Positions 1 to 32,676 of a stretch of 32,676 bases of DNA are shown in pieces. The DNA comes from Raillietiella orientalis (Eukaryota). Each line of letters opens with the position of its first letter. Position 1 is the first letter of the stretch. The notes under the pieces were generated by a model. That model had not been told where the DNA came from, did no database searches, and saw nothing but the letters and a program-made list of their open reading frames with translations. The DNA lies in contig JAYWIR010000197.1 of NCBI GenBank assembly GCA_036172245.1, positions 1-32,676 on the forward strand. Direction: 5' to 3'. A program made the translations under genes and the position numbers.

Positions 1-437
1 ACCACCACGGAGCGGTCCATGGATACTGGCAGGATCTTGCGGCCGTCTACGTTCAGCGGCGCATGGATTAGGCGGTGAGCCAAGGTGACATCTTTGCAGA
101 CCACCTCGACCCGCTGCCCGCCGCTGAGGACGGAGAGGCCGTCCAGATCCTTCTCATTAACATTTGCGTCCTTCAACGCTTTGCTGAAGGCGCGCGCTGT
201 CCGGCCGTCGAACAAGTTGCCTACCTGGTAGACAAGCGATGGCTTGTACCCGGAGGCCTTGTATGCGGCCATCTCCGCCATGGCTTCTGCGCTGGGCGCG
301 GCCACCATGGCGCTCCATGTCCTCGGCGTGGCCGGGGATGATTCCGGGGCGGCTGTCCCTGCTCCAGTAGGCTGTGGGGGCGAACTAGCCTCCCCCACTC
401 CCACCTCCATCGCGGTGTCCTCTGGCGTCGTGGCCAT
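1..437 (-). CDS. ORF1 (gag-like nucleic-acid-binding protein), N-terminal part, open to the window edge
   Basis: Manual translation from ATG 437 gives MATTPEDTAMEVG...YKPSLVYQVGNLFDGRTARAF...LSVLSGGQRVEVVCK...ILPVSMDRSVV with no stop. It aligns with ORF1 at 19075 and 13342. Confidence 0.85.
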   Translation of the reverse strand, partial: MATTPEDTAMEVGVGEASSPPQPTGAGTAAPESSPATPRTWSAMVAAPSAEAMAEMAAYKASGYKPSLVYQVGNLFDGRTARAFSKALKDANVNEKDLDGLSVLSGGQRVEVVCKDVTLAHRLIHAPLNVDGRKILPVSMDRSVV

Positions 438-525
438 TGGACACCGAGGATGTACACAAAACACCACACAGAAGAAAAAGCGCTTTCCTACTACTCTTTG
501 GGGAGTGAAGGAAAAACACGTCCTC
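1..525 (-). mobile_element. LINE copy B: 5' end, 5'UTR and start of ORF1 (runs off the window's left edge)
   Basis: The minus strand begins GAGGACGTGTTTTTCC, matching the other four 5' ends, and has the GGTGTCCAATGGC start context. It joins in the same orientation to the ORF1 C-terminal region of copy A. Confidence 0.85.
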
Positions 526-1874
526 CTACTGGCCGCGGAGGGTTCTGGCTGCAACGATGCAGCCAGCTCCTCCGCCGCACGCTCGAAGGCGGCGTCATCG
601 ATCACGGTCTCGATGACGGACGCTTCCGCCGGATCGCGCCCCACGCTGTTGACATTTTCAACAGTGGGTTGCTCGTCGGTAGAAGCGATTTCTTCCTTGC
701 GGCGTTAGGCGGGGAAGCGTTCCACGACGACGCTGCATTCTTTTAATTTCTCGCTAACCTGCCTTTTTTTATTTTGGTAAGCGAGCTTTTTTTCAATTCG
801 TCTTTCTTTCTTCTACTTTGCCTTTTTCTCTGTGGTTTCTTGCCATTTTGACACCTGACCGCTTTTGTCGATCTTTTCCGCATTCGTTGCCGGGGTGTCG
901 GCTGCGTCCTGGACCACGGTTGTGGGTGGCACAGCTTGAGCAGCAGCCTTCGCCGCCAGCCTCTTCTGCAGCAGGCGCGCGCGTTTTTTAAGGTTCCTCG
1001 CGGAAACCACGCGCATAGCGGATTGTTGACACACTTCCTCCGTGTGGCCCATTGTCCCGCATACCTGGCACTGTACATTGAGGCACCTCCTTTTGAGGTG
1101 TCCCGACGTGTTGCAGAAGCCACAGTATTTCGGCTTCCCCTCGTACCAGAGGTCGACACTTTCTTCGCCGACCACCTGTTTGTGGGGAAGGGTCGAGCCC
1201 TCCCGAACGGTTACACGGGCAGCCGTGAGGCCGCACTGAACTGTGGTATAGTCCTCGAAAGGACTAGGCTTGGTCCATACTGCATGGACCGTGCCTTCTT
1301 TTCCCAACGCGGCGCGTAACTGTTCTTTACGCATCCGCGCGGCAACTCCTAAAAGGTGGACTACCATACTGTGATCCGCTGTAATGGGAAGAAGCCTGCG
1401 TGTCCTCATTACCACGGTGGATTTGAGCGAACGTTGGGCCAGATCTGCATGTTTTCAGATCACCTCTACGTATTGCCCCCCGCTACGTATGGTCATAGCG
1501 CAGAGCCCCTCCTCTTTAACATCGAGAGCGCGCATCCCATTCGAAAAGGCGCGCGCACTCTCAGAAGAATACAAATTTCCTACCTTGTAGAATAGTAATG
1601 GGTTATACCCCTCTTCTACATAGGCAGATAATTCCGCCGCGGCTGCAGGCAATGGCGCCGACACGACGGCGCTTAACGCCCGCGCTGCAGCGGGGACCAG
1701 TTTTCTGGGGGCGAACGCCCCTACCACCTTCGCCACTGGAGGCGACGTTGATGCCGCCCCCTGGCACTCCAACTTTTCAATAGGCGACGTTGCCGCCGCC
1801 ACCTGGCACTCCATTTCTTCAGGAGGCGACGTTGCCACCGCCCCCTGACACGCACTGGTGGTCGTGTCAGCCAT
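526..1874 (-). pseudogene. ORF1 of copy A with two CX2CX4HX4C zinc knuckles
   Basis: ORFs 1455-1898 and 813-1415 share a frame split by a TGA. Knuckles are CGFCNTSGHLKRRC and CQVCGTMGHTEEVC, and there is a further stop at 813. Confidence 0.85.
1725..1850 (-). repeat. 3 x 42-bp coding tandem repeat in the ORF1 N-terminus
   Basis: CQGAVATSPPEEME / CQVAAATSPIEKLE / CQGAASTSPPVAKV. Confidence 0.8.
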
Positions 1875-1960
1875 TGCTGCCTGATCGACCACCACCACAC
1901 ACGAAGCCTATACCTAGGGACGGTTCCCGGCACGAGGAGCATCTAGGAAACACGTCGGCT

Positions 1961-4125
1961 CTAACCGACGTAAAGCGTTCGATTGCGTCGACCAGGAGCT
2001 CCTTCTGGAGCTCTTGGAACGCTTGGGATTCCCGGCCGTCTTCCGTGCTTACCTGCGCTATTGCTGGCTCTTGGCTCTAATAAACATCTCTTTTAGCGGC
2101 CGGCACATGTGCGGCGTGCCGGTTCGGCGTGGCATAAGGCAGGGTGACAGTCTAAGCCCCTTGCTCTTCAGCATCTACTTCGAGCTGGTGCTGAGGGCAT
2201 ACAGGGAGTCTCTGGCAACCCTGCCAAGCTCGTGTCCCGGCACGCCCGGTCTACGCCGACGACCTTCTGCTCCTGCTCCCCGGGTCCACCCCGGCGTCGG
2301 CGCTCGGAGATTTCTTTGAGTTGCTGCGCCGCACGACGGGCCTCGAGGTGAACAGAGATAAATCTTCCATCGTTCCAACATCACCACTACTTTTAAACAA
2401 TACGGCGTGGGCCGGACGCCGGACTGGATCCGCTTGGGGATTCCCACGGGCAGGTGCTTCAAGTACCTTGGCGTTCCGTTGGAGGACTTCTGCGTTGCAG
2501 AAGCCTGGTCTGACCGTCTCCAAAAGGTGGAGTTGGCGATCGGCCCGTTCCAGAACGGCAAGTTTTACTTGCAGGAGGGGGCCGCGGTGTGGGACGCGTT
2601 CGCGGCCTCCCTCCTTCGCCCCTTACTTTTTGTTTGCCTCGCCCCTCCCATCATACAGAGACGGACCAAAGCCCTCTTGAGGACTGCCCTTTGGGGCACA
2701 GCGAGGTCGCGGGTCCGATTGAAAGACTTGTGCGCTCCACGAAGGGATGGTGGCTTGGGCCTCCTTACGTTGGAGCGCATCAAACTACAGACGACACTTC
2801 GAAAGTTATCCCTTGCGGCTAGCTTATGGATGACGCCATGGTGCGATCCGGCACGGCTCCTCGCCAGAAGAGCGACCGGTTGCGAAGGATTGTCCTCGAT
2901 TCTCGTGGCCTACCAGCGCAGCCTCTCCAGCTGTGACCCCGATTTGCGTTAGATGGTCGCGCTGATGTGAGAGAATATTTGGATCTCCTGCCTTCCCGCG
3001 AACTGCACTGCCTGGCTTCAGGAGTCAGCTTCCGCGTGGGCTAAGATCAACGGCACGAGCAAAGCGGAATACAACTGCCTACGACGAGGACCGTACGCTC
3101 GACAGGCGCTGCAGGAGATTATCAACACGCCCCGGAAGTTTCTGTGGGCCTCTTTCAGTCCCCTTGCCCCCGTTCTGTCCTCCCTAAAAAACACTAGGAG
3201 CAGCAACGAGCTGGCATCGTGGGAAGTGTCCTGCTTCATCCGAGGCAGGAAAAAACCTTTAAAGGCGTGGACGACTCGGGAGCTCACGGACGCTGCCACC
3301 CCGAGCGTCCCGCCTGACGGACTTGCGCGCTGGGTAGAGCTGCTCGCAATACCTTCGGAGGAGGTGAAGTGGCCCTTAGCGTGTTGAGATTGCGGCACAC
3401 TATCGTTGAAGTGGCAGGAGACGGCGTTGCTATTTCTGCACTGGAGACTGTTAAGCAGAGCACGCCTGTCTCACTGGACACTGGAGAATGTGGATGCCCG
3501 CTGTGTCGAGTGCGGAGAAAGAGAAACCTTCCCACATCTCACCCTCGAGTGTGTCGTCCTGGATGGACTCTGGAGTCGAATCGCCCCAATCCTCCATCTT
3601 CCATTAGGCGACCCTAAGGAAATTTACCGTCGCCTCTTTCTGCGTGACGGCCTGCGCCCCGCTGCGTCTCTAGCAGTCCTCTGCTGCGTGCGCGGCATTG
3701 TGCAAAGGTGGCACGCCAGAAGAAGAGGCCCAAGATGCAGGGACGTCATCCACTGGACGACGATCTCTTTAGAGACGGCGGCAAGGTGGCGTCTACCTTT
3801 CACAATAAAAACCGAACTTGACTGCATCCTCAAGAGGATGCGGAGGACCGTCCCAGGCGCCCAGTGATCCCTTCCCTGCCTCATCCCTCTCCCCATATAA
3901 CTGTTTTCCTCCCCGTTATCTCCCTTTTTGTTTGTTATTTTTCTAGTTTTCCCTTCCCATGCGCCTCGGGAATGGACCTAACCGGTCTATGCACCGGCAA
4001 CCGACACGTCGAGCAAGGTGGGAGAACCCAGTGTTTCTTCACAGATAACATCTTTTAAAAGACTTTATTATCTAATTTTTGTAAAAAATTAGAATAATAA
4101 ATGCCCCGGCATATCCGGGTGAAAA
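1961..4125 (+). mobile_element. LINE copy C: 5'-truncated, RT to 3' end
   Basis: Starts at KAFDCVDQ and ends with AATAAATGCCCCGGCATATCCGGGTGAAAA. Possible 9-bp TSD ACGTCGGCT at 1952-1960 and 4126-4134. Confidence 0.85.
1972..3867 (+). pseudogene. ORF2 remnant (RT motifs, thumb, CCHC finger)
   Basis: GIRQGDSLSPLLF, YADD near 2253, FKYLGVP, GGLGL and CVECGERETFPHLTLEC, with several stops and a frameshift. Confidence 0.9.
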
Positions 4126-5113
4126 ACGTCGGCTGGAGCCGAGCATTCCCGGTCCTGGTCGTCGAGCAGAACTGTCGCCCGTGACTGCCAGACCTGGAGC
4201 TCGGCTTTGGCCTTGTACTCGGGTAATCGACCAACGTCCGCGCACCTGGAAAAAAAGCGGGCCTGCAGAAAATCTCTTCGGTTGGCTACGCCCTATTCCG
4301 AAGCCTCGCGGAAGCTAGTGCAAGGGAAACCGGCAGCAGAACTCGCGGACCGATCTTTTCAGATCGTCTTATTCCTCGATTTCACTTATGGCAATGCCAA
4401 GAAGGTACTGGCAAAGATGCTCAGATGCCTCCAGGTGGCTTAGCCAGTCTGCCGGCATCCTCCAAAAACAGTTTGGAGGCCCCTTGCCTGGCGGGTGCAA
4501 CTCGAACTCAAGCCTGTTGTGGTCTGAAAGCAGGGACGGCACGGGACCTCTCCGACTCACTCAAGAGAGCAAGTGTTCATCAAGGTATACGTGGTCCGGC
4601 GTTGCTGCCATAACAAGGTCGCTAGCGAACAAGTTCCACGCGTGCACGGACGCGCACATCTCTTCCGTTAGCAACTCTTCCCTTTTGTGGGATCTATTCT
4701 CGGAAAGCAGATGGACGTTAGAGTCCCCCGCAATGGGATGGGCCACAGTAGGGTGGAATCGAGTGAGATACTGTCTTTGAACGGAACCGAAAACTCAATC
4801 CTTTCGGCCCATCGTCCAGCTCCGCTTGGCGCGTACACGTTTGTTACGACAAGGTCGATCGAGTCGTACCACTTGAGTACAAGCTGTCCCACTCGGGCTT
4901 CCGTGTCGTTCCAAGACGTCACGGCAACACGACGAGAAGACGCGATTGCCCTCATCACGGCTGGGAAAGCGAGGCCGTGGTGCTCGCCTCACCCGGCGAG
5001 CGGGCAGTAAGCAGCACGACGGGCTGGAGGGCGCGGTCGCCACCGGCCTCAACTGTGCTGCACGTAATCGTGTGCTCCTCCCCGGGTGCAGAAACTGTGG
5101 GTTCCGGGGTGAG
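4126..5113 (-). mobile_element. LINE fragment D: ORF1 C-terminus and endonuclease (decayed, internally deleted)
   Basis: MRAIASSRRVAVTSWN, RVGQLVLKW, NVYAP, GDSN, PDHVYLD and LSDH. ORF1 stop and ORF2 start overlap as TGATG at 4957-4953. Confidence 0.85.
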
Positions 5114-7744
5114 TTTCCACCCGGATATGCCGGGGCATTTATTTAAAATGAAGAAAAGCGCAATACATTATCGAGTTGAGAACCCGAGGTTTCACCACAC
5201 CAAAACAGCTTTCTGGCTGCCGGCACTATGCCGGCGAGGTCCTTCCAATGTGCGGGGGTTGGGAAAGGAAAAAACAAAAACAAACAAAAAGTTGAAATGT
5301 GGGAGGAAACAAATGTTTCAGGGGTGGGAGGGCAGGGAAGGGATCACTGTGCACGGGATAGGTCTTCTAGATTCTATTCAGGATCGGGACAAGCTGAGTC
5401 CTCTCTGCGCCTAAGTAGCGCAACTTGCAAACAGCTCGCACGAATAGGCGAGTGAAACGTAAGGCGTTGCCAGTTGGCTGACGTCTTCTCCTGGTGGCGC
5501 TCCAAGCCGCCACGATCCCTCGAATGCAGCAAAGGACTGCTACAGAAGCGGGGGGGGACAAGGCGTCACGACAGAAGAGGCGTCTGAGAACGTCCTTAGG
5601 GTCACATCCGCGCAAATCCAGGATCGCCGCAAGGCGATCCCATGAAAAGCGAATGGCACCACACTCCAGAAGAAGGTGGGGAAAGGTCTCTTTTTCCCCG
5701 CACCGGTCGCACTGGGGATCCACAGCTCCCCGGGTTGAGTGATACAAGCGTGCTTTACAGGGTAAGCCACAATGTATTACAAGCAACGCTACCTCCTGCC
5801 ATTTAAGGGGGAGGGATCCACTGTTCCAGGACGCTGAAGGCCACTTCATCTCCTCCGAAGATAGTCCGAGTAGCTCGCCCCAGCGTCGAATTCCGTAAGG
5901 CGGGACACTCGGCGTCGCAGCGTCCGCTAGCTGCCGAGATAACCATGCCTTTATCGGTTGTGTCCTGCCGCCAATGGTGCAGGACACGGTCCATTTCCCC
6001 AGCTTCCTACTGTCCCTGGCGTTTATTAGGAAGGGCAGCACTGGGGCAAGGAGGGTTATCAGGGCCCACAGAAGCTTGTCGTGGGACTGCACGATCTCCT
6101 GCAGCGTCCACCGGGCGTGCCTTTTTAGGCAAGTGTTTCTTGTGCCCGCCGGAACGTGGATCTTTACCCAGGTGGACACTAACTCGTGCAGCCATGCAGA
6201 ATAGTTCCCTGGGAGGCAGGAGATCCAGGCGTTCTCCCGTACCACAACGCACATGCGACGCAGGAGAAAGCCGCCTTGTGCTTCTCTGCGATCGCGCACC
6301 AGCAGAGACGACAACAGTCCATCGAATCCGCAGGCTCGTTGGGCCAGGAGGCGTGCTGGAACGCACCAAGGCGTGTCCCACGATTCTGCCGCGAGGGCGA
6401 GAGCCCGAAAGCGGAGTTGTAATTCCATGCGCTCCAGCGTAAGTACGCCAAGTCCTCCGTACTTACGTGGAGCGCACAAGTCTTTGAGCCTCACACGGGA
6501 ACTCCCTTTGCCCCAAAGGACTGTCCTCAGGAAGCCCGCTGCTCTTTTTCGGATAAAATGGGGGGCGGGGTACACAAAAAGTAGGGGGCTGAGAAGGGAA
6601 GCCGCAAACGTGTTCCACACCGCGGCCCGTTCTTGCAAGTAGGACTTGCGTTCTTGGAACGGACCGATCGCCAACGCTGCCTTTTGGAGACGGTCGGACT
6701 AGAATTCTGCTGCGCAGAAGTCCCCCGACGGAACGCCGAGGTACTTGAAACACCTGCCCGTGGGGATCCCATAGCGGATCCAGTCCGACCGTCCAGCCCA
6801 CGCCGAGCCAAGATACACCATGGACGACTCCGCCCTGTTCACCTCCAGGCCCGTCCCACGGTGCAGCAACTCGAAGAAGTCCTCGAGCGCACTCGCCGAA
6901 GTGGACCCGGGAAGGAGCAGCAGAAGATCGTCTGCATAGGCCGACACGGCAGGTGTGCCGGCACACGAGCTCGGCAGGGTTGCCAGAGTTGCCCTGTATG
7001 CCCTTAGCACCAACTCGAAGTAGATGCTGAAGAGCAAGGGGATCTGGCTGTCACCCTGCTGGATGCCGCGGCGCACGGGCACGCCGTACACGTGACGGCC
7101 GCTGAAAAACATATTAATAGACGCGATGCGCCAGCAAGAGCGCAGGTAAGACTGGAGCACAGCCGGGATAATCATGCGTTCCAGGAGCTCCAGAAGGAGA
7201 TCCTGGTCCACACAGTCGGATGCTTTGTGCAAATCGACCGCGACGGCAAAGGTTAACGCCGAGTCCATCCCACCCTCTGCTTGATCTTCTTGGTCAGAGG
7301 GGAGTGCGAGGCTCCCTTGACCATCCTGTGCAACGCGTTGTCGCAACTGCCACCATGACCTGGCGAGGAGCAGATTGGCCTCCATGGTTCATCTGGAACA
7401 GCGTAGGTCTGCTCGGGACTCACCACGGATGCGGCCACCCGAAACAAACGCTCAGACCACAACCTGGCATACTACTTTGCGTCCGCATTCACTACTGTGA
7501 TGGGACGCCTGTTGTCAATGTTGCGTAAGTCTCCTGATTTCGGCAGGAGACGTACTTTTGCTGACCGGAACGAGGCGGGAACTTCGCCGTGTTCGCGAAT
7601 CAGCGTACTTTGTCTGAGCAAAAGGGGGGAAAGCTCTGGCGGGAAGTGTTTGTAAAACTCCGCGGGCAGGCCGTCCTCCCATGGTGCCTTCCTCATCTTT
7701 ATCTTGCTGATGGCGGAGATGATCTCCGTCATTATAAACGGTTC
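5114..7744 (-). mobile_element. LINE copy I: 5'-truncated, RT to 3' end
   Basis: 3' terminal motif at 5114-5143. RT homology extends to EPFI near 7744. Confidence 0.85.
5344..7744 (-). pseudogene. ORF2 remnant (RT and CCHC finger)
   Basis: KAPWEDGLPAEFY, RPITVVNADAK, AVDLHKASD, QGD, SAYADDL, FKYLG and CDRCGEKETFPHLLLEC, broken by stops and frameshifts. Confidence 0.9.
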
Positions 7745-10251
7745 CGCTGCACGCAGAATCCCCGACGGAGAATATTCTCTCTGAGATACTCCTGTCTCAG
7801 GATGCTCGTGTTGTCGGCGAGGAGGAACGCAAACGTCTCAACAAGCCCTTCACGGCGGATGAATTTTCGTCCGCCATCGCTAGGCTGAAGAGACGAAAGG
7901 CGTTAAGCGAGGATGGGCTCCCTGCAGAGTTCCATCAGTGCTTTGCAGTGGAGCTCATTCCCTTGATGCTGAGACTCGCGACGCTGATAAGTGAATCCGG
8001 GAATGTCCCGGATTCCTTCCGCTCTGCGAAAATGCGTCTCCTGCCAAAAGGCGGAGACTTGCTCCGACTTAACAACTGGCGTCCGATCACCTTGGTGAAC
8101 TCGGACGTCAAGTTATTTTCCAAGCTGTGGGTCGCGCGGTTAGGAAGTATCGCGGAATCTGTGGTGAGCCCGGAACAAACCTACGCGGTTCCGGGACGAT
8201 CCATGGAGGCGAACATCCTTTTCGCGCGTACATGGATGCAGCTGCAGGAAGTTGTGGCGCAGAAAAGCCAGGCTGCTGCGAAAGTCACTGCCGCAGGCAA
8301 GAAGAACAGGCGCCGACGGCAGGAGGGAACGCCAGGTGCCTTGGCGGTCGCGGTCGATCTCCACAAGGCGTACAACTGAGTAATCCAGAAGTTGCTTTTG
8401 GAGATTATGGAACGCCTTGGGTTCCCGGCGCAACTCCTGCTGTATTTGCGCGCGTGCTGGCGCCACGCGCTAACCTGCATCACTTTCAGCGGCTGCCGCG
8501 TGTATGGTATTCCCATGCGTAGGGGCATCCGACAGAGCGACAGCTTAAGCCCGTTGCCCTTCAGCATCTACTTTGAGTTCGTGCTTAGAGCATACAGGCT
8601 GACGCTGTCTCACTTGCCAAGCTCCTGCCCGGGAACGCCTGCCGTGGCCGCCTACGCTGATGACCTGCTTCTTCTGCTCCCCATGTCCACCCCGGCGTCC
8701 AGTGTCGAGGATTTCTTCGACCTGATTCGTCGGGGAGCGGGCGTGAGCGTGAACAGAGAGAAGAGCGTGGTCGTTCCTGTGGGTACGTCGTGGGAGGGGC
8801 AGTCCGACTGGATCCGCCTCGAGATCCCCACGGGCGGGTACTTTAAGTACCTTGGCGTTCCGTTGGGCGCTTTCGGCGCAGCCGAAGCGTGGGCGGACTG
8901 TCTTCAGAAAGCAGAGTTGGCCATCAGCCCGTTCTTTAACGGCAAGTTTACCTCGCAGGAACGGGCGACTATTTGGAACACCTTTGTGGTCCCCCTCCTC
9001 CGTCCCCTGTTTTTTGTTTTAAACCGCCCCTATGCGGCAAAACAGCGGGCAAAACGCCTGCTCAGGAACGCTCTCTGGGGACCTGCGAGATCCAGGATCG
9101 GCCTTAAAGATTTGTTAGCTCCGCGTCGGGATGCTGGTTTGGGTATCCTGACAATGGAGCGAATCGGACTGGAGGTGCAGTTCCGACTGCTGGCACTGTG
9201 TGTCCAGCTATGGACATCCCTCCTGTGTGTGCCAGCCTGCATTCTCCTGCGGAGATGCGCCGGCAGCGGAGGATTTCTCTCGCTTTTGCCGGGCACTCAA
9301 TACAGGAAGCGGGGTTCCAGGTTTCCATTGCGGCATTTGACCGCACTTCTGGAAGCTCACTAGTGGATCTCCTGCCGACCAATGTACTTTGAATCTTGGC
9401 GGTAGGAGTCTGTTGCATCCTAAGCAAAGTTCCAAGGAATACGCCCTGAAGATCTTCGCCCCCTGCGCCAATTTTTTCCACGATCCTTGGAAGAAGTACT
9501 GCAGGACGAGGTGAAGTTTTCTACCCTGGCTGCCACGCCTCTTGCCGCAGCGCTGTCTGCCCTCAGAGCAAGAAAGGACCGTTGCCAACAGGCGAGGTGG
9601 GAGGTTTTCTGCACGATAGCGGAAAAAACCACACTCCTTGGCGCCTGAAAGACGAGTGAGTTGGCGGACGCCGCCACTCCTCGTGTTACTGCAAAGGGAC
9701 TCCTCCGGTGGGCAGAAGAACTTGCTGTCACCCCCGAAGAACTTGTAGTCCCTCCACAGTGTATTGACAGTTCGCTGCTCCCGCTTGCTTGGGAACAAGC
9801 CGTGGTGCTTTTCGTTCACTGGGGTTTTCAGTGCAACGAGAGGTGGCATCTTGAATCCGGGGGACTTGCGTTTGCGAACTGCGTTCGGTGCGGATAGACG
9901 GAGTCGATTGTGCACCTACTTCTGGACTGCGGTGTCCTACAAGGACTGTGGCGTAGGCTAAAAACAGCACTATTGCATCCCGTGGACACCGCAAGAGACT
10001 TGCTGCGACGATTCTTCTCGCCGAGCGGGCTGTCCTTAAGCGCAAGGATGGCAACCATCGGTTGCATACGCGCGATGGTTTCTGTCCGCCAGGCGTTCGT
10101 AATCAACGGAAAGCACCAAGGGGTAATCAGCAAAGCATCCTTCTACATGGAAGCATCCGCTAGATGGCCTCATTTGACAGAGGAGACAAAAAGGAATCTC
10201 GCCGCAATACACCGCCGGTTTACACACGCTCAGCAGCGGCCAACCCAGTGA
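7745..10251 (+). pseudogene. ORF2 remnant (RT and CCHC finger)
   Basis: DGLPAEF, NWRPITLVNSDVK, AVDLHKAYN, AAYADDL, YFKYLG and CVRCG*TESIVHLLLDC, with multiple in-frame stops. Confidence 0.9.
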
Positions 10252-13253: not shown

Positions 13254-13341
13254 GCTAACGTGTTTTTTCCGCGCTCCTCTGCGCCTGTTGTAAAGCGTTC
13301 TTTTTCGGTAGTGTTTGTGTATGGAGCATCTGCGGTGTCCT

Positions 13342-18987: not shown

Positions 18988-19074
18988 GCGGACGTGTTTT
19001 TCCTGAGCTCCCGAGCGAGTCGACAGGAAGCGGCTTTTTCTGTGTTTTGTTGTGTGGAACATCGTTGGTGTCCG

Positions 19075-22541: not shown

Positions 22542-24891
22542 TTTTCACCCGGATTTCGCCTTGGCGTTTATTGTAAAATAAACTTTTACAAAGACGTGCG
22601 GTGGCTGGACCATTGCTCCAGCCACGCACGAAGAAACACAGAGCCTGCCGGGTCACCGGTTTGCGGACCGGTACGGTCCACCACGGCAGCAGGGGAAAGG
22701 GGGAAAAACAAAAAACAAAACAAAAAAGAAAAGAAAAGTTGGGAGGGTAAGGGAAGGGATCACAGTTGCTGGTGGGGCCGTTGCATCCTTTGCAGGATCC
22801 CGACAAGCTCCTTCTGTATTCCTGCATCCAGGTGGCGCCATCGGGACGCCCTCCTCAGGAAGTGGGTGGCTGGCTGGATGGCAACCTGGTCGCGTTGTCC
22901 TCCCGTAGCCTTGCTGCAAGCGGTGACGATCCCGCGTAGGCAGCACAAAGCTGCTAACAAGGCCGCTGGCCGAAGGGCGTCGGCAACGAAGAGGGCTTTC
23001 AGTGCGTCCCTGGAGTTGCCGCAGGGGATTCCGATGGCCGCGGCTAAGCGAAAAAAAAGGGGCCGAAGGGCAACACAATCCACTAGCAGGTGGGGGAGGG
23101 ACTCCCGTTCCCCACACCTGACGCAATTGGGGTCAACCGCTCCCCAGGTACAGTGGTGTCGGCGGGCGTTGCAGGGAAGTCCCCAGTGCTGCAACAGGAG
23201 AGCCGACACCTGCCATTTCAAGGGGAGGGCGGAAGTGTTCATGAGCACCGGGGGCCACTTCAGATGTTCATTGGGAACATCGAGCAGCGCGCCCCAGCGC
23301 AGAAGTCCATTGGGAGGCGTACTCGGGGTCGCAGCGTCTGTTAACTGGCCCGTCTTCCACTCTCCTATGTTCTTCTCCTTTCCGGAGATTGTTACTGTAA
23401 CCAACCACTTCGCCGCAACGTCGCTGTCCAGATCTTCCATGAGGAAGGGCAGCGCAGCAGCGAGGGTGGTTCTTCCTGCCCACGCTCTCTTCTTAGGATC
23501 CTCCAGGATGTCGCGGAGCGTGCAACTTCTGTAACCCCCAAACAGGAACCTTCGCTCCTGTTGGGAGCGTTGCATTCCGAACTGTCCCCACGTTCGAACG
23601 GTTTCCTGCAACCAGGCACTACCGTTCAACGGGAGACAGGTGAGCAATCCTGGATTTTTCCGATACAGCGCAGCCACCCTCCGTAGCTGGAGTCAGCATC
23701 GGTTGACGCGGCGACGGAGTGCAAGAAACGACGTCAGTCCCGTGTTGCCGGTGATTTGCTGGAGAAGGAGACGTGCAGGGACGAACCAACAGGTGCACCA
23801 GAACTCTGGAACGAGCGCCGACAAGCGGAACTGGAGCTGAAGCTCCAGCCGCTCCAGCGTCAGGAGGCCCAGACCACCATGCCGACGAGGATCGCACATG
23901 TTCTTTAAGCGGACTTGGGCCCTCCTGTTGCCCCAAAGGGCGATACGGAGGAGGTCCTTTGTCCGCTTTTTAATCCTCTCTGTGGGGGGGCAAACAAAAA
24001 GCAGGGGGCGGAGGAGAGGAGCCGCGAACGTGTTCCAAATTGCGGCCCGTTCAGGCAGGAAAAAGCTGCCGCCTCGGAACGGGCCGATCGCCGTGTCTAC
24101 TTTTTGAATGCAGCCGGACCACGCTTTCGCAGGGGAGTAGTCCCCCAACGACACACCAAGGTACTTGAAGTACCTCACCGTGGGGATCCCCAAACGGACC
24201 CAGTCCTGCTGCCGTGCCCACGCCGCACCAACTGGCATCACGGACGACTTCGCCGTGTTCACCGTAAGTCCGATTCCCCGATGCAGCAGTTCGAAGAACT
24301 GCTCGACCGCCTCAGCCGGGGTGGACATAAGGAGCAGCAGCAGAAGGTCGTCCGCGTACGCTGAAACGGCAGGCGTACCGGCACATTCGTGCGGTAGGTG
24401 CGCAGAGTTTCCCTGTACGCTCTCAGTACGAACTCAAAGTAGGTACTGAAGAGCAAGGGGCTCAGGCTCTAACTTCCGTATCCCAAGTCGCACCGGCACG
24501 CCGCGCACGGTTTGCCCGCTGAAAGTAACATTGATGAGCGCGTCGTGCCAGCAGGAGCGCAGATAGGTTACTAATGAGGCCGGGAAGCCCATGCGTTCCA
24601 GAAGCTCCAGAAGGAGATTCTGGCCGACGCAATCGAATGCTTTTCGCAAGTCGATTGCGACCGCAAGGGATCCCTCCCCCACCCGACCATCCAACCACTT
24701 GCCGGCGCACGCACCGGAATTCCGGCTGCGCACCAAGCTCCTTTCATGTTGGAGCTCTAGCCAGGTGGAAGCGTGGAACAGGTTCGCCTCCATGCTTCGC
24801 CCGGGAACAGCATATGTCTGTTCTGGGCTGACGAAGATGTTGGCAACACGTCCCAGACGCTCTGCCCAAACCTTAGCCGGCAACTTGGCGT
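22542..24891 (-). mobile_element. LINE copy E: RT (from DAKL) to 3' end
   Basis: 3' motif at 22542-22572 and ORF2 stop at 22760. AIDLRKAFD, SAYADDL, YFKYLG and CVRCGERESLPHLLVDC, frameshifted. Interrupted at 24891. Confidence 0.9.
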
Positions 24892-24979
24892 GCGGACGTG
24901 TTTTTGTAGCGCTCCTCCGCGCCTGGTGTAAAGCGTTTGGTTTCTTTTGTGTTTGTGTGTGGAGCATCTGCGGTGTCCA
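24892..24979 (+). promoter_or_regulatory. 5'UTR, putative internal promoter (representative of 5 copies)
   Basis: Conserved ACGTGTTT start, a CTCC motif, a TG-rich tract and GGTGTCCNATGGC. The promoter role is by analogy with other LINEs. Confidence 0.5.
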
Positions 24980-25060
24980 ATGGCAGAAATGCCTGAGGTC
25001 ACCGCAATGGATATAGGAGGGGGAGAGGCTTGCTCCTCTCATTTACCCACAGAGGTGGGG

Positions 25061-25276
25061 GCAAACGCCCCCACGGAGGCGACGGCAGCCGCACCCCTGA
25101 AAAAGGGGGCAACCGCCGCCTCGGAAGCGAGGGCAAAGTTCCCCTTGAAAAAGGGGGCAAAAGCCCCGCTAGAACAGGGTGCAACCGCCCCCTTGAAAAA
25201 GGGGACAACCGCAACCCTGGAAAAGGGCGCAACCGTCTGCTTGAAAAAGGGGGCACCTGCACCCTCGAATGCGTCT
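25061..25276 (+). repeat. ~9 x 24-bp coding tandem repeat (ATAPLKKG-like)
   Basis: Same periodic unit as 13423-13638. Confidence 0.8.
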
Positions 25277-26687
25277 TCCGCATCGCCGAAGACCTGGAGT
25301 TGAGAGGCTGCAGCCCCATCTCCTGCAGCCCTCGCCGAGCAGAAAGCCTACCTGGAGCAGGCATACAAGCCGTCCCTGATATACAAGGTAGGCAATCTGT
25401 TTGTCGGGAACACCGCTCGCAACTTCGAAAGGAAGTTGCTGCGGTTGAACGTAAAAGAGGAAGACTTGGAAGGTGTTTCCGTGTTGAGTGGTGGTCAGCG
25501 GGTGGAGCTGACTTGCAGAAATGCAATCCTTGCTCAACACCTCCTGAATACGCCAATCACACAAGAAGGCCGAAAGGTTTTCCCGGTAACGGAGGATCGC
25601 TCCGTGGTGACGCACCTCACGGGAGTCACCCTCCGCATGTCGAAAGCCGACGTGCAGGAGGAACTCGGAAAATACGGAACGGTTCACGCGCCATGGCCCA
25701 AGCCCAACGTCTTCCAGAGTTACGGAAGACGTTTAGTGGCATGGGTGGTGCGCGTGTAACCGTCTACGAAAACGGTGGGCTACCCCACAAACTAGACGTC
25801 GGCAACGAGACCGTCGACGTCTGGTACGTGGGCAAGCCCAAGTACTGTGGACACTGTGATGCCACAGGGCACCTGAAAAAGCGGTGCCCTCACATCCAGT
25901 GTTTCCACTGTAGAGAAAAGGGCCACCTCCGCAAAGTGTGCTCGAAGCGCGTACTTCCGGCTCCCGCTGCCTTGAAAAAGGCCAAAGGGAAACGCGCGGG
26001 GGCTACGGAAAAGCCTTCGAAGGCACCCGTGAGACGGAACCCACAGCCGGAGCTCGAGCCCGTGCAGCAAACGCCGGTCGTGGAATCTACCCAAGACGCT
26101 GAAAAGAGCGAAACCTAACAGAAGGCGAAGCCTGAAGCTAAGAAACCAAAGAAAAGTGAAGGATTGACAGCGGAACCCGCGACGTCTCCTTTAAATAGGA
26201 GACAACGCCGCGCGTTGATCCGCGAATGTTCGGTCGCTTTGGAGCGTGTGGAGGTACCCGAGACCGCCACCGGGAGAGCTATCCCCCGCGTCGACGCCGA
26301 CGATAACGCGATCACGGAAGGCGAACCCTCTGTGCAAACAGAGGGGGAACCGCGCGACGCGCTCGCCGCGATCGACGAGGCCGCATTCCAGCAGGCGGTG
26401 GAAGAGCTCGCGGCCGAACTCGCCGAACGTGAGAACGGCGCGCGAAAGGCCTTGCGAAAACCGGCCGCGACCAGGGCACCTCCGACAGGTGACCACGACC
26501 CGGATGCCGGAAGTGCGTCCTCTTCCACGAGGCGCCTCTGAAGAAGACTGGACGGAAGTCCAAGAATCCCAAGAGGCGCATCCCGACGAAGAGCGAGGGG
26601 GACGCACCGGCAGCCGACGGGGAAGCCGGCAGCGTGGGAACGGAGGGAGGAATTTTCCCACCCTCCGCCACCGAGCAGCCGGCCACC

Positions 26688-26925
26688 CCAATGAAGGAGG
26701 GGGAGCAGGTAGGGCATTGCCTCCCCCTTCCACCGGTGGAGCCTGCGGAGAAGATAGTCATGGAAGAGGGGGAGCAGACAGCTGAGAACCGCTCCCCCCT
26801 GCCGTCCATCGCAGTCGAGAAATCGGCCCACATGGAAGAGGGGAAGCAGGTGCGTGAAGCATGCTCCCTTCAACCGTTGCGTTCCGCCGAGGAATCGGCC
26901 CCCATGGAGGTGGGAGAACCGCTGG
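26688..26925 (+). repeat. 4 x ~72-bp degenerate repeat (PMEEGEQ) in the ORF1 C-terminus
   Basis: The ATG of the motif lies at 26691, 26760, 26832 and 26904. Confidence 0.7.
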
Positions 26926-26998
26926 GCGGTGCCCCCATGCCTCCATCCGTCCCGCCCGACCAGGTGGCGGGAGCCCCATTGTTGCTTTCCCAGGAGTA

Positions 26999-28709
26999 AC
27001 ACCTGGGCTCGCCTGTCGCCGTCGATTACGCGTGGCCTGCTGGAATGTGAACGGGCTGCGCGACGACGGCAACAGACGGGAAACGGCCGCCACCCTGCGT
27101 GACTTCGACCTGGCACTCCTGCAGGAGATCCACGTGATCACCGCGGAGAACGCCCAGGAGATCCAAAGGATCGCAGGGGGACGGTTGATGTGGCAATGCG
27201 GCACCCGATACACCTGCGGCGTCGCGTTTTTTATGAAGCCGGCAGTCGACGCAGCCATGAAGGGCGTGCGCTTCGACGAAGCCGGTCGTGTCGGCCAGCT
27301 GATTCTCAGGTGGTCCGACGCTATTGACCTCGTCGTAACAAATGTGTACGCTACGAGCGGTCCTACCAGTTATCAGGAACGTAAGGCGTTCCTGGAAACC
27401 CTGAAGCGCGACTGGCTGGCGGAAGCGAACGTGCGCGTGGCTCACCTGACAGCGGGAGACTTTAATCTCCGCCTGCTATCAGGTGAGCCACACGCACAGG
27501 AACGGACGGCTAACGAGTTGTGCGCCGCCATGCGCACGCTCAACTTGTTAGGGGATCTTTCGGAAATGGTCAGCAGCATCGACCACGTCTTCCTGGATGT
27601 CGACCTGTGTTCACGGGTCGGCAAACAAGGGAAAGTTGCGTTGGAGCTGTCTGACCATTTCCGGTTGATATTCGAGGTGTACCCGCGCGACAAGGGCCCC
27701 CCATCCAGGGCGTGGCGTCTGCCTGGGGACTGGACGCGACTCTCAGGTGCGAAGGAACACCTACGCGAATTCCTGAGAGGCGACACCCTCCGCAGTCTCA
27801 AAGATTGGGACCTCTTCAAGGCCTCGGACCGCGAGTTCTGCAAGAAGTTCCCCCTGCACCGTCTGCCCCCCAGATTTGAGGAGGGGGCTCGGAAACATAG
27901 GGCCTATTTACAGGCTTGCCGGTACAAGAGGACCCCCAATGTCCGTCGCCTGGCAGACTCCGAGCCAGGGTCGAACGTCAAGGCTGGCAATCCGGATCGG
28001 CCAGCTTGCTGGACGACCAGGGCCGGGAGCAATCGGCTCCGGCTAGAATACGGCACCTCGTGCGGCGTTTTTATTCCTCCCTTTACGCCAGGGCACCCCC
28101 GGACCAAGATGACCCTCGGCGCTTGCTTCCGAACGATGCCCCGGCAATAGGGGAGGAGGAGAAGGAAAGCCTCGACGAGCCTTTTATTACCGGCGAAATT
28201 ATCGCCGGTATGAAAAGGCTCAAAAGGCGGAAAGCACCAGGGGAAAACGGCCTGCCTGCGGAGTTTTTTCAATGCTTCGCGGCAGAGTTGGCACCCCTGG
28301 TGCTTGAGTTGACAAGGCTGAACCGAGATAAAGGCGATGTAACCGCCTCGTTTCGGTCAGCCAGAGTGAGGCTCCTTCCGAAAGGAGGAGACCTCAGGAA
28401 ACTCAGCAACTGGCGTCCGATCACAATTGTGAACACGGACGCCAAGCTGATCGCCGGACTGTGAGCTTCGCGTCTGGGGAAGGTGGCCAATTCTATAATT
28501 AGCCCGGAGCAGACTTACGCTGTTCCCGGACGAAGCATGGAGGCCAAGCTCTTCTTCGCGAGCACATGGTTTCATGTGCAGAGTAGTCAAGAAAAGGAAG
28601 AGGGAAGGATTGGCAGCCCCGCTTTGGGGGCCTCAGCCGGGCAGGGACAGGACTCCCAGGTGGGGAAGGGAGCCCTAGCGATCGCAGTCGATCCGCATGA
28701 AGCGTTTGA
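26999..28709 (+). pseudogene. ORF2 of copy N: endonuclease and early RT
   Basis: CWNVNG, LLQE, NVYA, AGDFN, SIDH, LSDH, KAPGENG and NWRPITIVNTDAK. Frameshift near 27960 and TGA at 28462. Confidence 0.9.
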
Positions 28710-30966
28710 TTTTCACCCGGATTTCGCCGGGGCGTTTATTGTAAAATAAACATTTACAAAGAGGTGTGGTGGCTGGACCATTGCTCCAGCCACGCACGAA
28801 GAAACACAGAGCCTGCCGGGTCACCGGTTCGCAGACCGGTACGGTCCACCACGGCAGCAGGGGGAAGGGTGAAAAACAAAAAACAAAACAAAAAAGAAAA
28901 GAAAAGTTGGGAGGGTAATGGAAGGGATCACAGTTGCTGGTGGGGCCGTTGCATCCTTTGCTGGATGCCGGCAAGCTCCTTCTGTATTCCTGGATCCAGC
29001 TGGGGACATCGTGACGCCCTCCTCAGGAACTGGGAGGCTGGCTGAATGGCACCCTGGTCGCGTTGTCCTCCCGTAGCCTTGCTCCAAGCGGTGACGATCC
29101 CGCGTTGGCAGCACGAAGATGCTAACGAGGCCGCTGGCCGAAGGGCGTCGGCAACGAAGAGGGCTTTCAGTGCGTCCCTGGGGTTGCCGCAGGGGATACC
29201 GATGGCCGCGGCAAAGCGAAACCAAAGGGGCGGAAGGGCAACACAATCCACTAGCAGGTGGGGAAGGGACTCCCGTTCCCCATACCTGACGCAACTGGGG
29301 TCCACCGCTCCCCAGGTACAGTGGTGTCGGCGTGCGTTGTAGGGGAGTCCCCAGTGCTGCAACAGGAGAGCCGACTCCTGCCATTTCAAGGGGAGGGCTA
29401 AGGTGTTCATGAGCACCGGGGGCCACTTCAGATGTTCAATGGGAACATCGAGCAGCGCGCCCCAGCGCAGAAGTCCATTGGGAGGCGTACTCGGGGTCGC
29501 AGCGTCTGTTAACTGGCCCGTCTTCCACTCTCCTATCTTCTTCTCCTTTCCGGAGATTGTTACTGTAACCAACAACTTCGCCGCAACATCGCTGTCCAGA
29601 TCTTCCATGAGGAAGGGCAGCGCAGCAGCGAGGGGGGTTTTTCCTGCCCACGCTCTCTTCTTAGGATCCTCCAGGATCTCGCGGAGCGTGCAACTTTTGT
29701 AACCCCCAAACAGGAACCTTCTTTCCTGTTGGGAGCGTTGCATGCCGAACTGTCCCCACGTTCGAACGGTTTCCTGCAACCAGGAACTACCGTTAAACGG
29801 GCGACAGGTCAGCAATCCTGGGTTTTTACGATACAGCGCAGCCACCCTCCGTAGCTGGAGTCCGCATCGGTTGACGCGGAGACGGAGTGCAAGAAACGAC
29901 GTCAGTCCCGTGTTGCCGGTGATTTGCTGGAGAAGGAGACGTGCAGGGACGAACCAACAGGTGCACCAGAACTCTGGAACGAGTGCCGACAAGCGGAACT
30001 GGAGCTGAAGCTCCCGCCGCTCCAGCGTCAGGAGGAGCAGACCACCATCCCGACGAGGAGCGCACAAGTCGTGGCGCGTTTTAAACCGCGGATTGTTCTG
30101 GCAAGTGAATGTTTCCTTCCAGGAACGTGCCGATCGCGTTCGCTACATTTTGGAGGCAGATCGACCACGCTTCCGCAGGGGAGTAGTCCCCCAACGGCAC
30201 ACCAAGGTACTCGAAGTACCTCACCGTGGAGATCCCCAAACGGACCCAGTGCTGCTGCCCTGCCCACGCCGCACCAACTGGCATCACGGACGACTTCGCC
30301 CTGTTCACCGTAAGTCCGGTTCCCCGATGCAGCAGGTCGAAGAACTCCTCGACTGCCGCAGCCGGGGTGGACATAGGGAGCAGCAGCAGAAGGTCGTCCG
30401 CGTATGCTGAAACGGCCAGAGTACCGGCACAGTCGGGCGGCAGGTGCGCCAGAGTTCCCCTGTACGCTCTCAGTACCAACTCAAAGTAGGTACTGAAGAG
30501 CAAGGAACTCCCTGCCGGATCCCACGCCGCACCGGCACGCCGTGCACGGTCTGCACACTGAAAGTAACATTGATGAGAGCGTCGCGCCAGCAGGAGCGCA
30601 GATAGGCCAGTAATGAGGCCGGTAAGTTCAAGCGTTCCAGAAGCTCTAGAAGGAGATTCTGGTCGACGCAATCGAATGTTTTTCGCAAGTCGATTGCGAC
30701 CGCAAGGTCTCCCTCCCCCACCCGACCATCCAACCCCCTTATGGCGCAAGCACCGGAATTCCGGCTGCGCACGAAGCTCCTTTCATGTTGGAGCTCTAGC
30801 CAGGTGGAAGCGTGGAACAATTTTGCCTCCATGGTTCGCCCGGGAACAGCATATGTCTGTTCCGAGCTAATGAAGATGTTGGCAACCCGTTCCAGACGCT
30901 CTGCCCAAACCTTACCCACCAACTTGGCGTCCGCATTCACTATTGCGATGGGACGCCAGTTGTTGA
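28710..30966 (-). mobile_element. LINE copy G: RT (from INNWRP) to 3' end (same subfamily as E)
   Basis: 3' motif at 28710-28740 and ORF2 stop at 28928. SAYADDL is present, with an internal deletion near 30070. Reads uninterrupted through NADAKL. Confidence 0.9.
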
Positions 30967-32676
30967 TTTTGCCACCCGGATATGCCGGGGCATTTATTAT
31001 TCTAATTTTCTACAAAAATTAGATAATAAAGTCTTTAAAAAGATGTTTTCTGTGGGGAAAACACTGGGTTCTCCCACCTTGCTCGACGTATCGGTTGCCA
31101 GTGCATAGACCGGTTAGGTCCATTCCCGAGGCGCATGGGAAGAGAAAACTAGAACAAAAACAAACAAAAAGAGAGATAACGGGGAGGGAAACAGTTATAT
31201 GGGGAGGGGGGGCAGGGAAGGGATCACTGGGCGCCTGGGTCGGTCCTCCGCATCCTGTTAAGGATGCAGTCAAGTTCGGTTTTTATTGTGAAAGGTAGAC
31301 GCCACCTTGTCGCCGTCTCTAAAGAGATCGTCGTCCAGTGGATGGCGTCTTTGCATCTTGGGCCTCTTCTTCTGGCGTGCCACCTTTGCACAATGCCGCG
31401 CACGCAGCAGAGGACTGCTAGAGACGCAGCGGGGCGCAGGCCGTCACGCAGAAAGAGGCGACGGTAAATTTCCTTAGGGTCGCCTACTGGAAGATGGAGG
31501 ATTGGGGCGATTCGACTCCAGAGTCCATCCAGGGCGACACACTCGAGGGTGAGATGCGGGAAGGTTTCTCTTTCTCCGCACTCGACACAGCGGGCATCCA
31601 CATTCCCCAGTGTCCAGTGAGACAGGCGTGCTCTGCTTAACAGTCCCCAGTGCAGAAATAGCAACGCCGTCTCCTGCCACTTCAACGGGAGTGTGCCGCA
31701 ATCCCAACACGCTGGGGGCCACTTCACCTCCTCCGGAGGTATTGCGAGCAGCTCTCCCCAGCGCGCAAGTCCGTGAGGCAGGACGCTCGGGGTGGCAGCG
31801 TCCGTGAGCTCCCGAGTCGTCCACGCCTTTAAAGGCTTTTTCCTGCCTCGGATGAGGCAGGACACTTCCCACGATGCCCGCTCGTTGCTGCTCCTAGTGT
31901 TTTTTAGGGAGGACAGAACGGGGGCAAGGGGGCTGAAAGAAACCCACAGAAACTTCCGGGGCGTGTTGATAATATCCTGCAGCGGCTGTCGAGCGTACGG
32001 TCCTCGTCGTAGGCAGTTGTATTCCGCCTCGCTCGTGCCGTTGATCTTAGCCCACGCGGAAGCTGACTCCTGAAGCCAGGCAGTGCAGTTCGCGGGGAGG
32101 CAGGAGATCCAGGTATTCTCCCTCATCAGGGCGACCAACTGGCGCAAATCGGGGCCACAGTTGGAGAGGCTGCGCTGGTAGGCCACAAGAATCGAGGACA
32201 ATCCTTCGCAACCGGTCGCTCTTCTGGCAAGGAGCCGTGCGGGATCGCACCATGGCGTCATCCATAAGCTAGCCGCAAGGGCTAACTTTCAAAGTGTTGT
32301 CTGTAGTTGGATGCGCTCCAACGTAAGGAGGCCCAAGCCACCATCCCTGCGTGGAGCGCACAAGTCTTTCAATCGGACTCGCTACCTCGCTGTGCCCCAA
32401 AGGGCAGTCCTCAAGAGGGCTTTGGTCCGTCTCTGTATCATGGGAGGGGCGGGGCAAACAAAAAGTAAGGGGCGAAGGAGGGGGGCCGCGAACGCGTTCC
32501 ACACGGCGGCCCGCTCCTGCAAGTTAAACTTGCCGTTCCGGAACGGGCCGATTGCCAACTCCACCTTTTGGAGACGGTCGGACCAGGCTTCTGCAACGCA
32601 GAAGTCCCCCAACGGAACGCCAAGGTACTTGAAGCACCTGCCCGTGGGGATCCCCAGACGGACCCAGTCCTGCTGC
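30967..32676 (-). mobile_element. LINE copy H: 3' part, continues beyond the window (same subfamily as C)
   Basis: 3' motif at 30967-30998 and ORF2 stop at 31224. CVECGERETFPHLTLEC and FKYLGVP. It is a near-identical inverted match to about 2410-4125. Confidence 0.9.

Follow-up and report, generated by a model that had tools for sequence, protein, structure and literature searches.

In this work, we describe a stretch of DNA from Raillietiella orientalis (assembly GCA_036172245.1, contig JAYWIR010000197.1, positions 1-32,676, forward strand) which is occupied by copies of one long interspersed nuclear element (LINE). The whole of this stretch, 32,676 nt in length, is referred to as the window. 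Comparison of the window with itself divides it into mutually similar stretches of 65-95% identity lying on both strands, with self-match offsets that recur at 6,167-6,227 nt. When nucleotide and six-frame self-comparisons are combined, 99.1% of the 32,676 bases are covered, and the sole uncovered stretch (10294-10558) lies between the end of the second open reading frame (ORF2) of one copy, J+, and the 3'-terminal motif of the same copy at 10535-10557. It is therefore the divergent 3' untranslated region (UTR) of J+. No unrelated DNA was detected in the window by either comparison, and neither another family of transposable elements (TEs) nor unique DNA was found in the 32.7 kb. The GC content is ~58% overall and 0.52-0.65 per 1-kb interval.

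The element and its copies

The element is ~5.9 kb long and is composed of a short 5' UTR, ORF1, ORF2 and a structured 3' UTR. ORF2 carries an APE endonuclease, a reverse transcriptase (RT) and a zf-RVT domain. With Pfam run on the longest stop-to-stop frames, the APE endonuclease (Exo_endo_phos, PF03372) was found in M+ (E 4.6e-12, 46.6 bits, cut-off 24.5) and in N+ (2.9e-10), and L1 endonuclease chains in the PDB such as 1vyb match the N-terminal half of ORF2 at ~3e-6. Residues 353-503 of the M+ ORF2 match residues 392-544 of human L1 ORF2p with an E-value of 1.7e-27. The RT core alone does not discriminate between element types (Bombyx R2 8e-13, L1 ORF2p 1.8e-10), and RVT_1, taken from a partial ORF, scores 26.2 bits, under its cut-off of 29.6. 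The zf-RVT domain (PF13966) reaches 28.7 bits in I- (cut-off 27.5) and 21-25 bits, under the cut-off, in the other copies; a CxxC..H....C motif is seen in the alignment consensus of the ORF2 C-terminus.

In ORF1, two CCHC motifs are visible in M+ (19075-20790), and zf-CCHC scores 23.7 bits in L+ (cut-off 20.8). An AlphaFold2 model of ORF1 built from a 5-row alignment has a mean pLDDT of 50.5, with values of 67-87 at residues ~50-180 and 51-75 on to ~220, and its best Foldseek matches are tandem-RRM proteins (E 6e-6 to 1e-4). The predicted order of ORF1 is RRM-RRM-CCHC-CCHC, in which the RRM parts are RRM-like as modeled. Between them, the APE domain, the match to human L1 ORF2p, the zf-RVT domain and the RRM-like domains and CCHC knuckles of ORF1 support a LINE that is L1-like in architecture. 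The initial annotation had cited L1-clade elements as precedent, and the agreement with it concerns architecture only. Tandem repeats lie just past the ORF1 start in three copies and encode 8-aa repeats: 24-nt units in ~7.5 copies in L+ (13445-13629) and N+ (25084-25264), and a 42-nt unit in 2.7 copies in B- (1739-1851). M+ and A- do not have them.

No copy in the window is intact. The ORF1 of M+ has one in-frame TAG (19231), and the N-terminal part of its ORF2 is open for 517 aa. An alternative genetic code was considered and rejected; the in-frame stops are a mixture of TGA (20), TAG (13) and TAA (12) and are thus ordinary pseudogene stops.

Copies were located by tblastn with the window's own ORFs, by blastn and by three-frame tblastn against R, a 5,899-nt coordinate reference made of N+ 24892-28709 joined to L+ 16315-18395, and the junctions were then read directly. 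The resulting map consists of 15 fragments of 14 copies of one LINE. Below, each copy is named by a letter and its strand, and sites a, a' and b are the junction points in ORF2 treated in the next section.

1 to ~525, minus strand: copy A-, 5' UTR and ORF1 start (R ~718 to 1), continuing past the left window edge
~521-528: complete 5' end of A-, adjoining ORF1 of B- in sense orientation
~530-1969, minus strand: copy B-, ORF1 and 5' end (R ~1530 to 1), of a divergent lineage
~1956-1969: 5' end of B-, ..GCCGACGTGTTTCC, adjoining C+ at site b
1970-4126, plus strand: copy C+ (R 3806 to 5899), the right-hand part of a host cut at site b
4121-4126: 3' terminus of C+, inserted in D-
4127 to ~5113, minus strand: copy D- (R 3165 to ~1950), endonuclease region and ORF1/ORF2 junction, host of the C+ 3' end
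~5114-7745, minus strand: copy I- (R 5899 to 3286), 3' terminus at ~5114, RT and C-terminal region
~7746-10565, plus strand: copy J+ (R 3190 to 5899), with divergent 3' UTR and 3'-terminal motif
10565: 3' end of J+, in the loop of a long palindrome of K+ (R 2566), sense orientation
10566-10905, plus strand: copy K+ (R 2566 to 2909), endonuclease fragment, outermost host visible in the window
10906-13253, minus strand: copy F-, part a (R 5899 to 3548), from its 3' terminus at 10906 to site a
13239-13253, plus strand: left copy of the target-site duplication (TSD) of L+, CTATCAACTTGGCGT, at site a on the antisense strand of the F- NTDAKL codons
13254-18396, plus strand: copy L+, full-length and collinear with both termini and several in-frame stops
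15040/15044: internal deletion of ~760 nt in L+
18397-18411, plus strand: right copy of the L+ TSD, 15 bp
18397-18987, minus strand: copy F-, part b (R 3562 to 2984), resuming after L+ and ending at the M+ 5' terminus
18988-22543, plus strand: copy M+ (R 1 to 3819), from its 5' terminus to site b
22544-24891, minus strand: copy E- (R 5899 to 3548), 3' terminus in site b of M+, running to site a
24892-28711, plus strand: copy N+ (R 1 to 3819), 5' terminus at site a of E-, running to site b
28411-28444, plus strand: conserved palindrome TGGCGTCCG..16 nt..CGGACGCCA, intact in N+, within the RT codons NWRPITIVNTDAK
28712 to ~30970, minus strand: copy G- (R 5899 to ~3507), 3' terminus in site b of N+
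~30971-32676, minus strand: copy H- (R 5899 to 4242), continuing past the right window edge
~30971: 3' terminus of H-, sense orientation, adjoining the NWRP-codon arm (site a') of G-

On the right side, the nesting can be followed from host to insert: K+ holds F-, F- holds both L+ and M+, M+ holds E-, E- holds N+, N+ holds G- and G- holds H-, so that it deepens toward the right window edge. A different nest contributes its right flank to the left end of the window; in it, D- holds C+, C+ holds B- and B- holds A-. The missing halves of M+, E-, N+, G- and the other open copies would lie past the window.

In the initial annotation, the window was taken as a pure array in which element joins element with no host DNA, with orientation alternating from 10908 and with each boundary an exact terminus inside ORF2. 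The self-match coverage and the surroundings of every visible terminus agree with the first of these. From 10906, the order is F-, L+, F-, M+, E-, N+, G-, and the eight boundaries from K+/F- to G-/H- each join a 5' or 3' terminus to internal ORF2. The copy called G- was correctly placed on the minus strand, but what had been described as one copy is two, G- and then H- from ~30971.

Termini, junctions and reused target sites

Thirteen element termini are visible in the window (five 5' and eight 3'), and all of them adjoin sequence of another copy. The complete 5' ends (A-, B-, L+, M+ and N+) have (GCGG)ACGTGTTTTT in common, and at the junctions from K+/F- to G-/H- the 5' terminus reads GCGGACGTGTTTTT... 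The eight 3' ends (C+, I-, J+, F-, L+, E-, G- and H-) carry AATAAAYGCCCCGGCRTR.CCGGGTG followed by 2-5 mostly A bases, a motif that has diverged in F- and J+. None of these eight ends has a poly(A) or simple-repeat tail, and in this the window copies differ from Zepp, a self-nested LINE discussed below, which has a poly(A) tail. The 5' side is visible in seven copies; it is complete in the five named above and truncated in I- and J+. Site-specific LINEs are usually complete at the 5' end. The 3' UTR has conserved stems with a few compensatory changes, and few were seen when its hairpins and the palindromes of ORF2 were subjected to covariation analysis. A search of the termini for RNA families and ribozymes with Rfam gave only sub-threshold, microRNA (miRNA)-like matches on the palindromes.

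The only insert with both of its ends in the window is L+. It is flanked by a 15-bp duplication, CTATCAACTTGGCGT, at 13239-13253 and 18397-18411, its host F- is present on both sides, and uninterrupted copies read ...ATCAGCTTGGCGTCCGTGTTCAC... at this position. Since L+ is collinear and full-length, has a TSD and lies between two parts of F-, it is read as a target-primed insertion with a 15-bp staggered cut, antisense to its host. A composite or inverted element and twin priming were rejected as explanations, given that L+ is collinear with a TSD and that the plus and minus fragments overlap by ~270 nt of element coordinates (R 3548-3819) and do not abut.

Two sites are used more than once. 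Site b is found in the RT motif A codons (VDLxKAFD/C) and accounts for three junctions. M+ and N+ both end after ...GATT and are followed by the reverse complement of a 3' terminus, that of E- and G-, respectively; M+/E- and N+/G- are thus joined at the identical nucleotide, ...GATT/TTCACCCGG. The third, B-/C+, is the complementary 5' junction and follows right after the complete 5' end of the antisense B-. With C+ starting at R 3806 and M+ and N+ ending at R 3819, the two sides overlap by ~14-16 nt, as is expected of a TSD. Site a is located on the antisense strand of the NTDAKL codons, inside the conserved palindrome, and has two junctions, in which ...AACTTGGCGT of F- and E- is followed, at the identical nucleotide, by the 5' terminus of L+ and N+, respectively. 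The mirror arm of the palindrome on the sense strand of G- contains a single junction, the 3' end of H-, and is referred to as site a'. Sites a and a' flank the two arms of the NWRPITIVNTDAK-codon palindrome (NWRPITxxNTDAKL region). The 5' junction of M+ in part b of F- reads AAATCCCTTGGCGA, similar to site a.

The insertions were proposed in the initial annotation to use the family's own copies as targets, often antisense, and the 13 junctions are indeed 8 antisense, 4 sense and 1 unassigned. The evidence for self-targeting now goes beyond that proposal, as it includes exact reuse of sites, a 15-bp TSD and a step in identity at a junction. Host breakpoints are also unevenly distributed: 11/13 lie within the 21% of the element that R 2566-3819 represents, and 0/13 in its last 2,080 nt. 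This clustering exceeds chance. It is one of the findings that make it quite improbable that the nesting is a mere by-product of retention, in which insertion would be approximately random and copies would survive only in a gene- or recombination-poor region such as pericentromeric heterochromatin. For Chlorella species, such a passive origin of TE-rich centromeres has been discussed (bioRxiv 10.1101/2024.02.27.582245). Passive accumulation does not account for two sites reused at the exact nucleotide, for breakpoints that avoid the 3' third of the element or for the lack of any other TE family or unique DNA in the 32.7 kb.

Still less probable is an error of assembly, in which repeats of one family were joined incorrectly and created false element-to-element junctions. 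Repeat arrays are prone to misassembly, the ZeppL clusters of Chlamydomonas v5 being an example (bioRxiv 10.1101/2022.06.16.496473). However, the copies in the window are 5-35% different from each other, which makes the sequence around each junction locally unique, and the junctions coincide with exact termini, one of them with a TSD, where mis-joins would be expected inside shared sequence. In addition, one short contig of run X1 runs from the J+ 3' UTR through the terminal motif into the K+ flank; compared by eye, 30 flanking letters contain one mismatch. Run X1 contains 0.10 of the sampled words, in 185 short contigs that are 90-99% alike, and provides no validation of the array beyond J+/K+; it may be the source sample or a close relative.

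With these alternatives weighed, we consider it probable (about 0.7) that the window is an internal piece of a cluster made solely of one L1-like LINE family, which prefers its own older copies as insertion sites.

Read along the sense strand of the insert, ATC(A/G)A(C/A) starts no more than ~3 nt from the 3' junction at each of the sites a, a' and b. The top-strand cut comes after CTTGGCGT at site a and, at site b, after CTTTACGT as seen in C+. Where L+ and N+ were not hit, the sequence is ATCAGC and GTCAAA. ATC(A/G)A(C/A) may tentatively be regarded as a target motif, one that is insufficient alone.

At the 5' side, the element end GCGGACGTGTT is similar to what the host reads just beyond the top-strand cut of site a, GCGTCCGTGTT; the likeness is seen at 18980-18996, 13246-13262 and 24884-24900. 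M+ lies at a different host site and has TTGGCGA in front of it. The likeness could reflect microhomology where the 5' end was joined, or else a donor in site a from which a short 5' stretch was transduced.

Two further palindromes are found in ORF2. One, in the endonuclease codons near GDFN, has 26-nt arms that are 88% complementary around a 15-nt loop (27431-27497 in N+, 15044-15096 in L+, 21259-21337 in M+). The loop of the K+ copy (R 2566) holds the 3' end of J+, the ~760-nt deletion in L+ ends at the left base of this palindrome, and the palindrome gives weak miRNA-like Rfam matches. The other has 20-nt arms with 90% complementarity and is located at 28177-28221 in N+, 15784-15826 in L+, 7700-7745 in I-, 7843-7887 in J+ and 18629-18673 in F-. 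Its sequence differs in each lineage and is still palindromic, with the center shifted by 1 nt, and the 5' breakpoint of I- (R 3286) coincides with its base.

Independent insertions and the ages of the copies

Two junctions at one nucleotide could have arisen from two insertions or from duplication of a single one. The debate is settled for site b by an alignment of M+E- with N+G- in 150-nt windows. Between M+ and N+, identity is 0.37-0.72 over ORF1 and 0.71-0.90 over their part of ORF2 (windows starting at 20812-22460; 80% overall), and the alignment then reaches 0.91-0.98 in windows starting at 22610-23810, just past the junction 22543/22544. The step from ~0.80 to ~0.95 falls exactly at the M+/E- and N+/G- junction. 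The hosts M+ and N+ are thus old and different and the inserts E- and G- are young siblings, which means that the same nucleotide was hit independently at least twice and was not duplicated together with its insert.

The competing explanation would be that a ~6.2-kb composite unit of one minus and one plus fragment was duplicated through unequal crossing-over or segmental duplication, followed by gene conversion, with no site specificity and only one or two original nested insertions. We regard this as unlikely, although it would provide for the ~6.2-kb period of the self-matches and for mosaic identity between copies, L+ and N+ being 81% identical over the 5' part and 93% over the endonuclease, and the synonymous divergence (dS) between F- and E- being 0.27 for the RT core and 0.83 for the C-terminal part. 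Under duplication, the step at site b is not expected, nor is the fact that the high identity of E- and G- stops at both element boundaries. L+ continues past site b as far as a 3' end and TSD of its own and so is not a member of a truncated unit, and B-/C+ represents a third site-b junction, of opposite polarity and elsewhere in the window. F- and E- also have different 3' hosts, K+ at R 2909 for the former and site b of M+ for the latter. Identities that run 0.61-0.74, then ~0.8 and then ~0.95 along the same alignment are difficult to square with one duplication and subsequent neutral decay.

Several observations weigh against a self-targeting family as the source of the window. The pair of junctions at site a lacks the identity step seen at site b: for F-/L+ (part a of F-) against E-/N+, identity is ~0.81-0.86 on the left and 0.75-0.87 on the right, a similarity of the two sides that duplication would explain. 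It is possible that this pair is an old duplication of one event with patchy gene conversion, and the different 3' hosts of F- and E- make a single duplication hard to reconcile here as well. A TSD is seen directly for one insertion only, L+, the sole insert with both ends in the window. ATCRAM was rejected as the sole target motif, with 9 unused occurrences in R and with unhit sites that deviate from it. At I-/J+ and D-/I-, a simple nesting order requires that 5'-truncated inserts or a deletion be assumed. Nesting makes E- older than G-, and yet E- has a terminal branch of 0.035 in the tree of copies, against 0.053 in G-; part of the G- branch may stem from a badly aligned indel region.

As a separate observation, I- and J+ meet head-to-head at 7745/7746 (R 3286 and R 3190) with 68% identity and with no recognizable terminus or TSD.

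Young pairs are found among the inner copies. E- and G- are 94.8% identical in the 3' part and 90.3% in the RT part, C+ and H- are 95% identical, and L+ and N+ share 93% in the endonuclease region, while the outer copies K+, D-, I- and J+ have no close relative. Eight copies span the region from the RT to the C-terminus; in their maximum-likelihood tree, which has five starred inner branches, J+ is deepest, followed by (I-,(C+,H-)) and (L+,(F-,(E-,G-))). The window as a whole contains at least five deeply diverged lineages. Between lineages, the ratio of nonsynonymous to synonymous divergence (dN/dS) is 0.22-0.50 with dS of 0.45 to >1 (0.17 for the close L+/N+ pair), and in the young pairs dN/dS is 0.5-0.8. 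Low dN/dS at dS up to >1 implies that most of the divergence arose in functional lineages. The rarity of indels between diverged copies fits with this, as 3 gap columns stand against 343-360 substitutions (360 for M+ vs N+ in the endonuclease region). These substitution patterns indicate several lineages that coexisted over long periods.

Decay of the kind caused by repeat-induced point mutation (RIP) or driven by CpG was rejected, given an observed/expected ratio of 0.95 for CpG and no excess of transitions. The young pairs differ in their substitutions: between E- and G- (22544-23900 vs 28712-30068) there are 48 transversions and 22 transitions, and the opposite is found between C+ and H-, with 26 transversions and 56 transitions. 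In G- relative to E- (30069-30122 vs 23901-24076), ~120 nt have been deleted or replaced internally. A contig of run X1 joins both sides of this gap with 8 other letters between them.

Proposed mechanism and comparison with known LINEs

From the junctions, a mechanism can be proposed in which integration would proceed through target-primed reverse transcription with a ~15-bp staggered cut. The targets would be short sequences, few in number, located where the element's own ORF2 is most conserved. Sites a and b would be recognized on the antisense strand of the host, so that each insert is flipped relative to the copy that receives it, and recursive hits would produce the series plus (R 1 to 3819), minus (R 5899 to 3548), plus (R 1 to 3819) and so on, nested ever deeper toward the right. 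Antisense hits at sites a and b account in this way for both the alternating orientation and a ~6.17-kb period; the predicted value is 3,820 + 2,348 = 6,168 nt, and the observed offsets begin at 6,167. Specificity would presumably reside in the endonuclease or in the ribonucleoprotein (RNP), and the array may act as a safe haven for the element.

In a stronger form of this proposal, which we hold as tentative and somewhat doubtful, the element would be an obligate self-targeter whose endonuclease or RNP recognizes ~15-bp stretches made up of the codons most conserved in its own RT, namely motif A and the NWRP...NTDAK palindrome, the latter readable on either strand. If this is true, selection on the RT preserves the target, and every new copy adds targets as every hit kills an older copy. 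The outcome would be gene-free, self-renewing arrays with coexisting lineages, which could seed or maintain centromeres.

Recurrent integration at one nucleotide of a multicopy target with a fixed stagger is characteristic of the APE-type LINEs Tx1, R1 and TRAS and of R2. These elements have many full-length copies, and their 3' end is recognized with no need of a long poly(A). The targets of elements of this kind are repeats or genes of the host (ribosomal DNA, small nuclear RNA genes, telomere repeats, microsatellites or another transposon). The copies in the window resemble them in the reuse of one nucleotide, the share of full-length 5' ends, the absence of a long poly(A) and possibly a fixed stagger. 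Independent insertions at the same nucleotide of a defined target are present at site b, and the duplication lengths are 15 bp where seen directly (L+, n=1) and 14-16 bp as implied by the site-b coordinates. In contrast to these elements, the target here is the element's own ORF2; new copies bring targets with them, and each hit destroys a copy.

Arrays built from a single self-nested LINE have been described in other organisms. In Coccomyxa subellipsoidea C-169, Zepp forms one nested cluster per chromosome, 1.5-42.3 kb in size, with no satellite DNA in or near the clusters, and it is accepted that the clusters arise by targeting of copies already present (Blanc et al., 2012, PMC3446292). The element has 61% GC, compared with ~58% in the window, and two ORFs, for a Gag-like protein and RT (PMC3446292). 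Zepp clustering has been ascribed to nested insertion into existing copies, with tandem arrays of mostly 5'-truncated 3' ends as the outcome (PMC8226300). Nested clusters of one two-ORF LINE family that lack satellite DNA are common to Zepp and the window. Unlike Zepp as published, the copies in the window frequently have full-length 5' ends and alternate in orientation, 8/12 resolved host-insert pairs are antisense and exact nucleotides in RT-coding motifs are reused. The initial annotation had offered Zepp as its precedent, and a centromeric or subtelomeric location as a possibility. Its self-targeting and its L1-like architecture are retained, but the tandem and mostly 5'-truncated arrays published for Zepp are a poor match.

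In Chlamydomonas, the putative centromeres are formed by clusters of ZeppL-1_cRei (Craig et al., 2021, PMC8226300; bioRxiv 10.1101/2022.06.16.496473). This element resembles the window family as an L1-type LINE nested in its own copies; in Chlamydomonas and relatives, Zepp-like elements are restricted to one localized cluster per chromosome at the putative centromere. The Chlamydomonas clusters as reported contain a single family that makes up ~60% of the sequence, other TEs being the rest, whereas the window consists 100% of one family with at least five deeply diverged lineages. Chlorella centromeres are described as mixed TEs (bioRxiv 10.1101/2024.02.27.582245). A further case is Cnl1, a 3.5-kb fungal element of Cryptococcus neoformans with arrays of 5-80 kb that expand by transposition and/or recombination (bioRxiv 10.1101/2021.08.11.455996). 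These arrays are likewise composed of copies of one LINE. They differ in being subtelomeric, with telomere repeats, and Cnl1 reportedly prefers G+C-rich sites and has TSDs that are variable (1-12 bp) or absent (bioRxiv 10.1101/2021.08.11.455996).

In several green algae, self-nested L1 clusters have been proposed as the DNA of the centromeres, and the portions of this literature covered here leave unexplained how the elements find their own copies. No statement on exact self-target nucleotides was found in the Zepp and ZeppL literature searched, which does not extend to the original descriptions of Zepp. Relative to known self-nested LINE clusters, site-specific and mostly antisense insertion into the element's own RT-coding motifs is supported as the new feature here. 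The window provides junctions at the nucleotide level that point to sequence-specific recognition of these motifs, and a simple geometric account of an alternating structure with a ~6.17-kb period. If this holds genome-wide, it provides a testable model with a defined 15-bp target and a predicted junction distribution, and it explains how a retrotransposon builds a pure array that is harmless to its host.

In very large protein collections, the family has almost no relatives, so that its host is probably a eukaryote that has been poorly sampled. A profile scan of a prokaryote genome collection with the ORF2 alignment yielded no relative, and a metagenome scan with the 3'-terminal motif yielded one match (L001), which has no blastn similarity to the window. 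The best named matches in word-indexed and HMMER searches are plant RT+zf-RVT proteins and vertebrate and tick RTs with 24-32% identity. The ESM Atlas supplied no informative taxon. In an exhaustive HMMER search of 1.84 billion representatives, only P0027 and P0028 were close, the next matches having <=31% identity. P0027 is a protein of 619 aa with 58% identity, encoded on a 2,870-bp JGI metagenome contig, and it is uninterrupted through sites a and b.

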